The position numbers were made by a program, and so were the translations under genes. A stretch of DNA of 64,000 nt from an uncultured virus (IMG/VR IMGVR_UViG_3300027763_001732) (Duplodnaviria > Heunggongvirae > Uroviricota > Caudoviricetes). Each line of letters opens with the position of its first letter. Position 1 is the first letter of the stretch. The stretch lies in IMG/VR virus record IMGVR_UViG_3300027763_001732; one strand, written 5' to 3'. Positions 1,697-61,597 of this stretch are shown here, in pieces. The notes under the pieces are model-generated. The model was not told the origin of the DNA, did not search any database, and saw only the letters and a list, made by a program, of their open reading frames with translations.

Positions 1697-2602
1697 ATGA
1701 ATAAACTTAAAAAAATACTTTTGGGCATGTGTATATGCATTTCGGCTCATGCTGTAGAATTCACTGTTCATCATGCTCCGGGTGGACCCAGCGACAGGAT
1801 CACCAGATTGATCACAAAAAACTTACCAGCGGCTGCTGGCTATACTGTGCAAAATCGTCCTGGTGCCGCTGGCAGAATTGCAGTCAAATATGTACTACAA
1901 GGCAACAGTGTGCTGATGGCTACTGTACCACAAATATATGTAACCAATCCAATAATGTTTAAAGATTTAGAATACAATCCAGACACGGACTTGGAGATAT
2001 TAGGAGTCGTTGCTGTTCTTCCAAATTTATTAATATGCAATTCAAAACTGGGAATCAAAACATTCAATGAATTTTTATCAACAACAAAATCATTGAGCTT
2101 TGCCATTAATGGTTATGGTAGCTCAGAACATATTGCATCTGAATCTTTGTTTGTCCATGCCAGAGGCAAGCATTTGGTAATACCCTATCCTGCAGGAGGC
2201 AACAAAGGTGCATTGGACGTAATGGCTGGAAATGTAGATTGTACATTCGGCAACTATGCCGGTATCAAAGCAATAATCTCTGATCCAAGAATCACTGTAC
2301 TATTTGCCAGTCATGACATGGGAGATAAGATAGTTACATGGGAACAATACTTTAAAGAACCATTTCCATATCAAAGTTATGTAGCATTAGTAGTTTCTAA
2401 ATCCATGGAAGCTGACAATAAGTCTAAGATTGTTGCTGATGTTTCAAAGGTATTCTCCAGCAAGGAATTCAAAGACACTACATTTGACGCAGGTCTACTG
2501 CCTGTGGGATCAACTGAGCCATGGATGATAAATTCTGTGTTAAAATCAAACCGAGCACTGACTAGGTTTATTCAAAACAATAAACTAGAAATTAAACAAT
2601 AA
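1697..2602 (+). CDS. Bug/TctC-family tripartite tricarboxylate transporter substrate-binding protein
   Basis: Signal peptide; PGGPSDRITR, VQNRPGAAGRIA, GYGSSEH, IPYPAGG..DVMAGNVD motifs. Confidence 0.85.
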   Translation: MNKLKKILLGMCICISAHAVEFTVHHAPGGPSDRITRLITKNLPAAAGYTVQNRPGAAGRIAVKYVLQGNSVLMATVPQIYVTNPIMFKDLEYNPDTDLEILGVVAVLPNLLICNSKLGIKTFNEFLSTTKSLSFAINGYGSSEHIASESLFVHARGKHLVIPYPAGGNKGALDVMAGNVDCTFGNYAGIKAIISDPRITVLFASHDMGDKIVTWEQYFKEPFPYQSYVALVVSKSMEADNKSKIVADVSKVFSSKEFKDTTFDAGLLPVGSTEPWMINSVLKSNRALTRFIQNNKLEIKQ

Positions 2603-4650: not shown

Positions 4651-4675
4651 AAAGAAAAGCACCCGAAGGTGCTTT
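4651..4675. terminator. Intrinsic terminator ending the tmRNA coding piece, probably bidirectional
   Basis: AAAGCACC-CGAA-GGTGCTTT hairpin (UUCG loop on minus) with a U-tract on minus. Confidence 0.85.
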
Positions 4676-4717
4676 CTAGAGTTTCTGTTACGAGGTATGT
4701 CTTACCCTAAGCTGAGT

Positions 4718-4750
4718 TTAGGCAGCTAATGCGAACTGTGAGTCGTTTGC
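4718..4750 (-). other. tmRNA proteolysis tag reading frame ANDSQFALAA*
   Basis: GCA AAC GAC TCA CAG TTC GCA TTA GCT GCC TAA after GTAAAC; canonical AND...ALAA tag. Confidence 0.92.
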
Positions 4751-4860
4751 GTTTACTTTGTTGTGCTTCTTCGGCCGAGTTCCCCCAACCCTAACGGCTT
4801 CTACATTGCCGGACTGTCCATTTCAATACTTGTGACCCAATCGATCCTGTGTCAGGCCCA

Positions 4861-5019
4861 TCATAAAGATTTTATTTTTGATACAATATTGTAAACTTTG
4901 GAGTATGCTTTGGTGATCTCATCTAACTGATCTTCAGTTATTGATTCATCTAGTTCTAGATGAACCAGATCTTTGGCCAAGTTTTCTTGCAACTCTTTCA
5001 GTTTATCGGTATCATTCAT
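4861..5019 (-). CDS. 52-aa ORF inside the tmRNA intervening segment (MNDTDKLKELQENLAKDLVHLELDESITEDQLDEITKAYSKVYNIVSKIKSL)
   Basis: Hand-translated ATG..TGA with no internal stop; fills 159 of the 172 intervening nt; amphipathic helical pattern. Confidence 0.65.
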   Translation of the reverse strand: MNDTDKLKELQENLAKDLVHLELDESITEDQLDEITKAYSKVYNIVSKIKSL

Positions 5020-5100
5020 ATACAATCTTTATGGTGGACCTGGCGGGCACTGCCCCCGCGTCTTGAATCCTTTTCTGTCTACTTCATACAGTCTTAACTA

Positions 5101-5346
5101 TTATTTACATATAATATCAGTTTGTCGTTTATTATTTATTAGAGACGACAATGTTCTTTTAGTTTCGTCACTGGCAGTTTTCGCTATTTCTTGAATTGCA
5201 TTTAATCTTGCAATTTCTGTCATTGCATAATCTTTACTAATTGATTTCTGTGCTTCTAAACAAGCATTGATGTTATTATGCAATACTGCGTTCAGCGAAC
5301 TGCATCCCGATAGTAAGATTGTTGTTAATAAAATAATTGTTTTCAT
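5101..5346 (-). CDS. Small lipoprotein
   Basis: MKTIILLTTILLSGC lipobox. Confidence 0.65.
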   Translation of the reverse strand: MKTIILLTTILLSGCSSLNAVLHNNINACLEAQKSISKDYAMTEIARLNAIQEIAKTASDETKRTLSSLINNKRQTDIICK

Positions 5347-5359
5347 AAAATGTTCTTAG

Positions 5360-5446
5360 AGGATAGTAGGGGATTTGAACCCCTGAAAGACCTACGTCTT
5401 TGCCAACTTCGGAGATTGGTGTCATAAGCCTCTCGACCAACCATCC
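5360..5446 (-). tRNA. Class II (Ser-architecture) tRNA with CCG anticodon; CCA not encoded (T-CTA follows)
   Basis: Cloverleaf: GGATGGT/ACTATCC, D-arm GTC..GAC, anticodon arm CCAAT-CTCCGAA-GTTGG, 6-bp variable arm AAAGAC/GTCTTT, T-arm AGGGG-TTCAAAT-CCCCT. Confidence 0.85.
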
Positions 5447-48918: not shown

Positions 48919-49425
48919 TTATTTATCTTTGTTTTTAAGGTTCTGGCTGATTAGATTCAATATAGCATTGCGATCTGTAGTCAAATCACCCAGGCCTTGT
49001 GGGCCATTATCATCTTCAGTTTTAGCCGTTTGTGCCAGTTTAGCTGCCTTTAATTGTAGATCAATCATCTTTAGCTTCTTGTCCAGTTTGGCTGTTTTAG
49101 CAGAAATGGCATTATTCATCATAGTGCTGGCTACTTCAAATACTTTACCGGCATTTCTATCATCCATGTTGTAGCCAAGATCCATTAGTCTTTCAAAGCT
49201 ATCCATAGCTCTGGCAGCATAATCATCCAAGTCTCGATCTTCTACATCTAATCCTCTAACTGTGGGCAGTGCTTGATCAATTCTATCTGCTATAGTCAGT
49301 TGTTCGTGTACAAGGGCTATAGTTGTTTCTATTGGCACTAGTTTTTCGGCTGTCAGGGGGAGTTGATCCTCTACATCCGATTCTGTATTGTCTACATTAA
49401 AAAAGTCTTCAAGTTTTTTAGTCAT
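48919..49425 (-). CDS. Helical protein, possible terminase small subunit
   Basis: Helical hairpin plus coiled coil ending DRNAIL; between gp4 and terL. Confidence 0.45.
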   Translation of the reverse strand: MTKKLEDFFNVDNTESDVEDQLPLTAEKLVPIETTIALVHEQLTIADRIDQALPTVRGLDVEDRDLDDYAARAMDSFERLMDLGYNMDDRNAGKVFEVASTMMNNAISAKTAKLDKKLKMIDLQLKAAKLAQTAKTEDDNGPQGLGDLTTDRNAILNLISQNLKNKDK

Positions 49426-49886
49426 CGTTTTTTCGTTCTTTTGGCAGCGGTTCTTGGTTGCCAGTTATTGTATATATCTTCTTCGGTGAGTATTCTAAAC
49501 TTCATACCATGTCGTTGGCACCAAAGTCTACATGCTTCCCACTTGGCCATATTTAACACTACAGCCGCTTTTTCCTGCTGTGTATTTGCTTCATCTAGTC
49601 TAGCTTGTTTGCGTGGTTTAACTTCTATGATCTCGCTGATTTTATTACCAGATTTGTCTTGATAAGTGATTAAAAAGTCTGGATAGTATGTTGTATCTTT
49701 ACCTGTAAACGGATTACGATATGGTATGCGTAGACTTTCACTGGCCCATCCTATGACCGCAGGATGATTATCACAGAATCTCATCACTGTTAGTTCCCAA
49801 CTGCTACGATACTTGGGACTATTACTGCCTATATACTTACTTGGGTTAGTAGGGGTAAAAAATCCCTGTGTAAAATTGTAAGCCAT
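49422..49886 (-). CDS. Head completion nuclease (T4 gp4-like)
   Basis: YRSSWE, WASE, YYPDF, IEVKP, KWEA, ILTE. Confidence 0.9.
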   Translation of the reverse strand: MAYNFTQGFFTPTNPSKYIGSNSPKYRSSWELTVMRFCDNHPAVIGWASESLRIPYRNPFTGKDTTYYPDFLITYQDKSGNKISEIIEVKPRKQARLDEANTQQEKAAVVLNMAKWEACRLWCQRHGMKFRILTEEDIYNNWQPRTAAKRTKKR

Positions 49887-60561: not shown

Positions 60562-61443
60562 TTAGAAACGGTGTGTTAAACCAACACCAATTTGTTCTAC
60601 GTCACGTGATGTTCCAACGGCATCAACATTGCGATATACAACACCTACATCAGTACGTTTACTAAACGCATATTCTACACCAACTGCATAGGCTTTAACA
60701 TCTGTACTCGTTGTACCATAACTTGCTTTAGCAGTAACAGCACCAAATGATTGACTTACACCAATTAAATTACCCGTGCTGTTTACGGCACCTTCATTGT
60801 CACTGTAAGTATAAACTACTGTGGCTTTACCAACTTTAGTATTCAACCCAACTACTGTACTTTTTTCAGAGCCGGCAGTATAAGTTGCCACAGTACCATT
60901 GACACCATATGCACCAGCACTCAGGCTATAAGAACTTGCATCAGCACCCGTTGCATTGTGAGCATTATCAGCAGTAAGTGTTACACCTTTCATAGGAGTA
61001 ATGCTAACGAATGTACCATTGCTCATACGTAGACCGCGTAGGTTATGAACATCGCCGGCAATAGAACCATACATAACTCCGAATACATCGTTCTTAGCAA
61101 TAGCTGAGAATTCGCTGTGAACATTGCGACCTAAATTAATGCTGCCTAATTTGTTCGATAGACCAACTGTTGATTGACGATCTCCTAATTGAGTGTCGGC
61201 TGATTTTGGATCGTTTGCAAACAGTTTAGTATCGATAACAACTGAAGCTGTCAAATCGTTGCCTAATGTTTCTGAACTTCTAAAAGTGATATTACTAGTA
61301 GGTTCCGAAGCCATACTATTAACTGTGGTAACCCCAGTTTTTGTGCTATCAATATATTGTCCGATTTTACCAGAAACGGTAGGTTGAGCCGATGCTACAG
61401 TTGTTACTAATACCAACACGGTTGCTAAGATTGTTTTTTTCAT
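60562..61443 (-). CDS. Gram-negative porin (betaproteobacterial type)
   Basis: Signal peptide; E.LGNDL.A, RQSTVGL, G.I.LGR, YAFSKRT, terminal GLTHRF. Confidence 0.88.
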   Translation of the reverse strand: MKKTILATVLVLVTTVASAQPTVSGKIGQYIDSTKTGVTTVNSMASEPTSNITFRSSETLGNDLTASVVIDTKLFANDPKSADTQLGDRQSTVGLSNKLGSINLGRNVHSEFSAIAKNDVFGVMYGSIAGDVHNLRGLRMSNGTFVSITPMKGVTLTADNAHNATGADASSYSLSAGAYGVNGTVATYTAGSEKSTVVGLNTKVGKATVVYTYSDNEGAVNSTGNLIGVSQSFGAVTAKASYGTTSTDVKAYAVGVEYAFSKRTDVGVVYRNVDAVGTSRDVEQIGVGLTHRF

Positions 61444-61597
61444 ATTAAATTTCCTTTTTTTGTTTAGCAAATTAAAATAATTTACTATCTTATATATTAC
61501 ATGTATTCAGATTCTCCTGTCAAAGAGACTAAAATCAAATATTTCAATGAGTTTTTGGTAGTAGACAATTAAAAAACTTTAGGTAAATAGTTATACT

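Follow-up and report, generated by a model that had tools for sequence, protein, structure and literature searches.

A probable exchangeable passenger-gene slot in the intervening segment of a phage two-piece tmRNA

Coding inserts in stable-RNA genes and the locus in the window

Two-piece transfer-messenger RNAs (tmRNAs) are textbook gene permutation, and the segment between their two halves is regarded as disposable. Here, such a segment is described from an uncultured virus of the Caudoviricetes (IMG/VR record IMGVR_UViG_3300027763_001732). The analysed stretch of 64,000 nucleotides (nt), henceforth called the window, carries on its minus strand a permuted tmRNA gene whose 172-nt intervening segment is nearly filled by an open reading frame (ORF) of 52 codons. 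The segment is probably one occupant of an exchangeable passenger-gene slot within the intervening segment of phage two-piece tmRNAs.

The two-piece tmRNAs of phages are themselves already known; what is new here is the spacer of a two-piece tmRNA as a slot for small genes. The accessible part of PMC9004378 gives 53 ARAGORN calls in isolate phages (50 aquatic), names the OM43 phage Melnitz and pelagimyophages as aquatic phages with a two-piece tmRNA, and places a riboswitch in the 3' domain of the Melnitz ssrA gene. As contents of the intervening segment, one tRNA-Ala gene and one repetitive element are reported in the accessible part of PMC11915505. An ORF in the tmRNA segment was mentioned neither in the accessible parts of PMC11915505, PMC4383926, PMC4131195 and PMC9004378 nor in texts reached by full-text searches, supplements being outside the scope of this check.

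The order of acceptor piece, CCA, segment, and coding piece is the same as in the two-piece tmRNAs of Alphaproteobacteria, Betaproteobacteria, and Cyanobacteria (RF04321, RF01849-RF01851; Caulobacter prototype), and the tRNA-like domain with G3-U70 as well as the tag of the ANDxxxALAA type are shared with bacterial and aquatic-phage two-piece tmRNAs. In contrast to the bacterial ones, the locus in the window has a 172-nt segment, a long covarying stem, and a protein gene under selection. Messenger RNAs located between tRNAs are freed by RNase P and 3' processing in tRNA-punctuated transcripts (mitochondria, the bacterial tRNA-tufB operon, the tRNA region of phage T4). These likewise have coding sequence between tRNA-type processing sites on one precursor, whereas the flanks in the window are the halves of one tRNA-like domain that pair across the ORF.

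Intervening sequences (IVSs) of 23S rRNA genes with an S23p ORF (Coxiella burnetii, Leptospira) are also stem-closed inserts in a stable-RNA gene with a protein ORF inside, and they are cut out of the precursor with no rejoining of the ends, so that the RNA is functional though fragmented (accessible part of PMC4990558); in the window, excision is predicted. According to the same part of PMC4990558, excision is performed by RNase III and the ORFs belong to the single S23p family, whereas tRNA-type processing is expected here and 32 families were found. The S23p ORF of Coxiella is described there as decaying and apparently untranslated, and the IVS RNA as rapidly degraded after excision (PMC4990558). 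The spacer cargoes of the phages are unlike S23p in that most have a Shine-Dalgarno (SD) sequence and are under purifying selection. Identity of the segment with a 23S-type IVS was rejected, there being no S23p match in Pfam and the host gene being a tmRNA rather than an rRNA. Group I introns with homing-endonuclease genes in the tmRNA T-loop (accessible part of PMC11915505) are coding inserts removed from a tmRNA as well; the insert in the window differs in its position at the permutation junction after CCA, in the lack of splicing and religation, and in the lack of an endonuclease domain. This identity was rejected too (no Rfam intron family at the gathering score; a 52-amino-acid (aa) helical hairpin as product).

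The 52-codon gene and the tmRNA halves around it

The central features of the locus are given below with the evidence for each in brackets (dN/dS, ratio of non-synonymous to synonymous substitution rates).

4861..5019, minus strand: gene for the 52-aa helical-hairpin protein MNDTDKLKELQENLAKDLVHLELDESITEDQLDEITKAYSKVYNIVSKIKSL, followed by a TGA stop (ORF list, translation, dN/dS, homologs, AlphaFold)
4860..5031, minus strand: intervening segment, 172 nt (RF04321 insert between model positions 86 and 87)
5032..5093, minus strand: acceptor piece of the tmRNA (RF04321 alignment, model positions 1-63)
4677..4859, minus strand: coding piece of the tmRNA, 3' limit approximate (Rfam alignments and sequence)
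5024..5033, minus strand: 5' arm of the closing stem, CAUAAAGAUU (fold, covariation, SD census)
4862..4871, minus strand: 3' arm of the closing stem, AAUCUUUAUG, doubling as the final codons (K)SL plus the first two stop bases (sequence, fold, covariation)

The permuted tmRNA was matched by Rfam model RF04321 at 5093..4718 on the minus strand with 100.5 bits (cut-off 47) over model positions 1-213 of 213, and by the alpha_tmRNA model with 58.3 bits; ARAGORN, run on the same locus, called the upstream tRNA and missed the permuted tmRNA. In the acceptor piece, the 5' long-helix strand is followed by the T-arm GCGGG-GGCAGUG-CCCGC, then by CAGGUCC as the 3' acceptor strand, and finally by discriminator A and CCA (5034..5032); the coding piece opens with the 5' acceptor strand GGGCCUG at 4859 and includes GGAUCGA. 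Alanine identity is present (G3-U70 in the 7-bp acceptor stem GGGCCUG/CAGGUCC, discriminator A, encoded CCA), and the tag frame at 4750..4718 (GCA AAC GAC UCA CAG UUC GCA UUA GCU GCC UAA) reads ANDSQFALAA, i.e., an alanine resume codon, an ..ALAA degron, and a stop. The borders of the segment were read from the sequence, with CCA on one side and the G pairing with the acceptor 3' strand (4859) on the other, and the 172 nt between them are predicted to be missing from the mature two-piece tmRNA.

Within the segment, the ORF starts with ATG at 5019 and ends with TGA at 4863..4861 (52 codons and stop), with a single base between the TGA and the mature 5' G. The 12-nt leader before the ATG (UAAAGAUUGUAU) has no canonical SD in the window by the ribosome-binding-site test; in the homologs L018, L097, L128, and L299, AAGGA is located 5-7 nt upstream of the start. 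In the minimum-energy fold (-57.5 kcal/mol; z = -6.97, 200 shuffles), CAUAAAGAUU pairs with AAUCUUUAUG, and this helix extends or stacks on the acceptor stem. Its 5' arm sits where relatives have the SD AAGGA, and a G-to-A change in the window (AAAGA) perfected the stem (A-U for G-U) and weakened the SD. Rfam, sequence, and fold thus confirmed the anatomy that had been given in a preliminary description of this DNA (a 172-nt segment, a 52-codon ORF at 5019-4861, a 12-nt leader without SD, a TGA 1 nt off the mature end, and paired segment ends).

As judged from its sequence evolution, the ORF is a genuine gene under purifying selection. An ORF of such length was found in 2 of 1000 mononucleotide shuffles of the segment. 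The dN/dS (Nei-Gojobori) was 0.21 in comparison with L018 and 0.10 in comparison with L097, with 9/2/14 and 17/3/22 differences, respectively, at the three codon positions. Three diverged versions in viral contigs have all kept frame, length, and start position (ATG or GTG), and the proportion of non-synonymous differences (pN) was far below that of synonymous differences (pS) in 21 of 21 pairwise comparisons of the 52-aa family, covering seven genomic contexts. A search of 5.8 billion proteins returned 45 homolog clusters (90% identity level) with 62-100% identity, of which 39 are exactly 52 aa long; longer entries in the clusters are gene calls starting inside the acceptor piece. The profile search returned 64 representatives at the 50% level, nearly all of 48-66 aa, and longer or fused homologs of the 52-aa protein were not found.

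The AlphaFold model computed with the homolog alignment is a two-helix hairpin (helices 3-23 and 29-51; predicted local distance difference test score (pLDDT) 86.8). Pfam gave Med15_fungi as the only hit, at 16.7 bits and below the cut-off, and no S23p; PHROGs gave no match. Foldseek against the PDB returned nothing at E <= 0.001 and just generic helical hairpins, and in the ESM Atlas one unnamed cluster at 0.83 was retrieved and nothing else. The protein is taken to be an accessory phage protein of the 'moron' type.

Intervening segments of related loci and the surroundings of the gene

The preliminary description had assumed segments of this type to be short and without coding sequence as a rule, which holds for bacteria. 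A pattern scan yielded 107 permuted tmRNA genes with the same T-arm motif, mostly alphaproteobacterial (13 further loci unresolved), with segments of 5-139 nt (n = 107; median 30) and a longest internal ORF of 16 codons. The end-to-end stem of the bacterial segments had a median of 4 bp and was barely longer than in shuffles (3.3). The T-arm motif GGGGGCNGUNCCC was also seen in the one-piece tmRNAs of metagenome-assembled genomes of Patescibacteria/Saccharibacteria (L198, L233, L235, L236); it is otherwise seen in alphaproteobacterial two-piece tmRNAs.

For the viral loci, IMG/VR was searched with the exact 31-nt T-arm/acceptor string of the window, which gave at least 120 loci. The segment was delimited in 112 of the matches listed, making 113 loci together with the window (lineage 1), and the counts for this lineage apply among the matches listed. 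Its 64 unique segments are 27-382 nt long, and 26 of them (41 loci) were judged coding by explicit criteria and with the downstream context taken into account; all 20 unique versions of at least 120 nt are filled to 80-97% by one sense ORF (shuffle P <= 0.018). A second phage tmRNA lineage with a different T-arm and the best Rfam score with beta_tmRNA comprises 110 loci with 83 unique segments of 20-382 nt, 23 of which (33 loci) are coding; ten further loci were left unresolved by the segment heuristic. Both lineages together amount to 223 viral loci and 147 unique segments (49 coding, 98 non-coding). In the non-coding spacers of relatives, Rfam showed tmRNA and tRNA families only. Those of L044, L113, L009, L011, and L040 contain T-arm-like hairpins (GGUUCGAAUCC, GGUUCGAUUCC, GGUUCAAUUCC), which may be tRNA-derived modules; no Rfam family was matched in the spacers of this kind that were scanned (L044, L009, L011).

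The closing stem covaries and is a conserved RNA helix. Across 142 unique segments, the outermost pair joins the nucleotide that follows CCA to the fifth-last one of the segment, and further pairs continue inward. Stem positions 2-9 are paired in 94-100% of these segments (shuffle means 43-92%), with four to six pair types at positions 5, 7, 8, and 9, up to six per position and G-U included, and shifted registers pair poorly in the same set. The last four bases of the segment are UGAU or UAAU in 62 of the 64 lineage-1 versions. Coding versions are typically built around this helix, in that UAAGGA in the 5' arm serves as an SD located 5-8 nt upstream of the start, the last codons form the 3' arm, and the UGA of UGAU is the stop.

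The 49 cargo ORFs fall into 32 unrelated blastp families, four of which are common to both tmRNA lineages, and the 52-aa family of the window is the largest (6 unique segments, 10 loci). The cargoes range from hydrophobic peptides of 20-45 aa and Cys-rich mini-proteins to DUF2061 and DUF6356 membrane proteins and proteins of 100-123 aa; two of them scored above curated Pfam cut-offs (DUF2061, 72.6 bits; DUF6356, 39.3 bits). Among the two-member families (n = 7), dN/dS was 0.06-0.18 in the four pairs diverged enough. Otherwise unrelated cargoes in L019, L305, L047/L362, and L037/L055 have a common N-terminus, MRI(K/N)E(L/I) or MKISEL, which could be a recombination joint within the first codons or a common signal.

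With respect to where the cargo ORFs end, the segment end is reached in 22 families, 18 of which are in frame with UGA at -4..-2 (expected one third; binomial P = 4e-6), and in 10 families the stop is located 12-15 nt before the end, just ahead of the 3' arm. The stop precedes the processing site in 28 of the 32 families, and the ORFs of four families overshoot it and continue into the mature tmRNA. Spacer ORFs that start with ATG after a good SD and run 13-69 nt into the mature tmRNA were seen in L007 and nine other loci, L058, L083, L295, L318, and L287, among them a 30-codon CPSC..HKC peptide and a conserved WYH..LCLAVP..NYFYW membrane peptide. An overshooting ORF has no stop before the RNase P site, and its message would therefore be non-stop after processing.

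Cassettes have been replaced at fixed boundaries. In L008, L017, and L058, the upstream DNA is 91-96.5% identical and the coding pieces are 93.5-100% identical, and three unrelated ORFs lie between them; similarity is lost right after CCA-UAAGGA and regained at CUUAUGA(U/G)-GGG. The preliminary description had named two outcomes for homologous segments, ORFs kept at a dN/dS below 1 and cargo ORFs swapped inside a conserved stem. Both were observed, the first with values of 0.10-0.21 and an intact ORF, the second with unrelated ORFs in relatives and a stem that covaries.

The gene is tied to the tmRNA locus, and the tmRNA does not depend on the gene. In 42 of 42 viral loci, the 52-aa gene is located in, or at most 3 kb from, a permuted tmRNA or tmRNA remnant, its contexts including the segments of both tmRNA lineages, the 5' leader, where it ends ~14 nt before the acceptor piece (L121/122, L133-138, L159), and positions 0.04-2.8 kb upstream on the same strand in other loci. 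In L129/L130 (640..880), a decayed tmRNA whose T-arm is deleted and whose 5' half is cut off after ~20 nt has kept an intact 52-aa gene and the closing stem, and an intact tmRNA whose spacer is non-coding follows this remnant directly. The closest viral relative of the window gene (L121, 83% aa identity) is a leader copy, with DNA similarity extending from a few bases before the ATG to exactly after UGAU. Conversely, just 17 of 240 tmRNA loci among the matches listed have the 52-aa gene inside the fetched flanks.

Around the tmRNA gene, four further features were annotated.

4655..4676, minus strand: intrinsic-terminator-like hairpin with U run, closing the tmRNA transcription unit (terminator scan)
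5100..5128, minus strand: weak sigma-70-like promoter candidate ACGACA-17-AATAAT (9/12 positions match)
5101..5346, minus strand: ORF of an 81-aa lipoprotein-like protein, signal peptide and LSGC lipobox by eye (ORF list, sequence)
5360..5446, minus strand: tRNA-Arg(CCG) with a long variable arm (ARAGORN; Rfam RF00005, 46.3 bits; fold)

The tRNA at 5360..5446 upstream places the tmRNA in a tRNA-type transcription and processing context. It is 87-88 nt long and has a class-II body like tRNA-Leu and tRNA-Ser, yet the arginine anticodon CCG; this phage tRNA may serve recoding or be mischarged. From the promoter candidate, transcription is predicted to start near the 5' end of the acceptor piece. 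Five such sites occur in the region (3.6 expected from shuffles), and the candidate is a hint only of a promoter of the tmRNA unit. The 81-aa ORF spans the gap from the tRNA to the acceptor piece, the leader slot in which L121, L134, and L159 have the 52-aa gene, and gave neither a Pfam nor a PHROG match.

The genome in the window is of the myovirus type (large terminase, tail sheath and tube, ribonucleotide reductase, UvsX-like recombinase, helicase, primase). At 1697..2602 (plus strand) and 60562..61470 (minus strand), it encodes a homolog of the TctC/Bug-family periplasmic receptors and a Gram-negative porin (Porin_4), a combination that we take to be typical of Burkholderiales-type hosts. 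The ANDSQFALAA tag and the beta_tmRNA matches of some relatives point in the same direction, and the T-arm motif is alpha-like. A protein with a TnsA-like endonuclease N-terminal domain (79 bits) is encoded amid tail and structural genes at 49422..49886 (minus strand). The Rfam scan of the window gave no glutamine riboswitch like that of Melnitz, and SmpB was not among the window ORFs scanned. The isolate-phage collection had no usable match by blastn (locus, coding piece) or tblastn (neighbour protein), the only alignment being one of 35 nt to a Vibrio phage (E = 0.5), and the nearest viral record (G001) had no tmRNA match.

Readings of the slot and their consequences

The reading of the segment as one occupant of an exchangeable passenger-gene slot is consistent with the following course of events. 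The 52-aa gene probably has no promoter or terminator of its own and would be carried on the tmRNA precursor transcript in a tRNA-type array. The closing stem of ~10 bp would extend the acceptor stem and clamp the tmRNA halves across the long insert, allowing the tRNA-like domain to fold for the RNase P cut at 4859/4860 and for CCA trimming. With cassettes built around this stem (SD in the 5' arm, last codons in the 3' arm, the UGA before the RNase P site as stop), ribosomes could engage the nascent precursor while the 3' arm is still to be transcribed; formation of the stem would then mask the SD, stop translation, and commit the RNA to maturation as tmRNA, the excised segment being discarded afterwards. 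Co-infecting phages may have passed cassettes to one another by homologous recombination, in which the conserved tmRNA halves would have served as homology arms. Recombination in the tmRNA flanks would keep the 52-aa family always in or beside a tmRNA without a role in ribosome rescue being needed. A passenger gene in a neutral site, which the preliminary description had put forward as the simpler alternative, fits the data best.

Several points weigh against the passenger-gene slot. The SD in the window is degenerate (AAAGA), so that initiation may be weak, and a stable stem includes the SD region as well as the stop, which would hinder translation of the folded RNA. Contigs from RNA libraries (4 runs, 4 studies) span conserved portions of the tmRNAs of relatives whose spacers differ and leave 4892..5003 uncovered, and 22 runs had small shares of the stretch only; these data are assembled contigs without ends or strand and are neutral on expression. 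As the SD was one of the coding criteria, the pooled association of SD and coding segments is partly circular. In the count free of circularity, that of the 20 lineage-1 coding segments of at least 121 nt, 14 have an SD-like motif located 3-11 nt upstream of the start, compared with just 2 of 34 non-coding lineage-1 segments having one within the first 14 nt. Two of the seven two-member cargo families consist of pairs too alike to judge selection, and the pair L049/L061 differs by one synonymous and six non-synonymous changes, giving a dN/dS of 1.4 on very few changes. Backbones with both 400-nt flanks at least 90% identical have the same segment in 31 of 31 pairs, and a difference in spacer was not found between any two loci whose flanks are both at least 95% identical; swaps are therefore real, yet not frequent on short time scales. 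Finally, the lasting linkage of the 52-aa family to the tmRNA (42/42) would also be expected from a functional partnership.

A different, less probable use of the segment that still deserves some credence is that of a mini-mRNA released by processing, in which the excised, stem-closed RNA, extending from the SD to 1 nt past the stop, is translated and may compete with tmRNA-SmpB at its very 3' end. Because the ORFs of 28 of the 32 families stop before the processing site, with UGA at -4..-2 in 18 of the 22 families reaching the end, the excised RNA would be a complete unit of SD, ORF, and stop, and the panhandle could shield both of its ends. The same stem, however, sequesters SD and stop in the excised RNA, the four overshooting families would yield non-stop messages, and the published analogue, the IVS RNA of Coxiella, is quickly degraded and its ORF apparently untranslated (accessible part of PMC4990558).

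That the 52-aa protein is a dedicated partner in trans-translation, acting for instance by binding SmpB, tmRNA, or a protease adaptor, and encoded in the tmRNA gene for joint production, appears unlikely. The restriction of the family to permuted tmRNA genes and their vicinity (42/42 viral loci, decayed remnant included) and its rank as the most frequent cargo family under strong purifying selection speak for such a role. However, the linkage is equally well explained by recombination in the tmRNA flanks, the gene was found in just 17 of 240 tmRNA loci among the matches listed, and 31 unrelated families besides this one occur in the slot, whose unique versions are mostly non-coding (98 of 147). 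No link to a translation or proteolysis factor emerged from Pfam, PHROGs, PDB folds, or the Atlas, and no SmpB was among the window ORFs scanned. With respect to accessory factors of trans-translation (SmpB-, SspB-, or ArfA-like), no family or fold matched, and the co-occurrence with tmRNA is one-directional only. The role as protease adaptor or SmpB modulator proposed in the preliminary description found no support, in view of 32 unrelated families, mostly non-coding segments, and 17/240 loci.

It is rather improbable that the SD-ORF-UGA-U spacer is a purpose-built expression module. In this case, the excised RNA would be an end-protected mRNA whose stop at the 3' end competes with tmRNA-SmpB entry, overshooting products would obligatorily be tagged, cargo output would be set by, and would report, the capacity for trans-translation, and the 52-aa product would feed back on the pathway.

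The act of translation, not the product, could count if ribosomes melted the 3' arm and so timed or gated maturation of the tmRNA. SD and stop are located in the stem arms in most cassettes, so that translation and stem formation are mutually exclusive by geometry. The conservation of the amino-acid sequences (dN/dS 0.06-0.21) makes such a regulatory ORF very unlikely, as do the two cargoes in curated protein families, the persistence of the 52-aa gene at sites other than the segment as well as in a dead tmRNA remnant, and the absence of an ORF from two thirds of the unique segments, in which the tmRNA is still conserved. Sharp and constant boundaries, inverted-repeat ends, and an ORF module ending in ..UCUUUAUGAU that recurs in two types of location, segment and leader, would suit a self-mobile cassette, i.e., an element similar to a miniature inverted-repeat transposable element (MITE) or an integron attC site that inserts after CCA. 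This is highly improbable, given that no integrase or transposase is associated, that leader copies have no 5' arm, and that the 'repeats' covary as an RNA helix with G-U pairs, which points to selection at the RNA level. A chance ORF in a non-coding spacer, for which the AT-rich segment and the lack of a canonical SD in the window could be cited, is ruled out for practical purposes by the shuffle test, the codon-position pattern, the low dN/dS, and the conservation of length and start over 45-64 clusters.

With the passenger-gene slot as the preferred reading, at least 32 small-protein families reside in the spacers of more than 70 uncultured phage loci, with SD and stop within the arms of an RNA clamp. 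As a hiding place for small phage genes, this slot is of a new class, missed by tmRNA and gene annotation pipelines alike, and it offers a defined, portable cassette site for the study of accessory-gene exchange among phages. It is also a natural case of one transcript choosing between messenger and stable RNA. If cargo expression does depend on RNase P processing or trans-translation, this would be a new regulatory principle.

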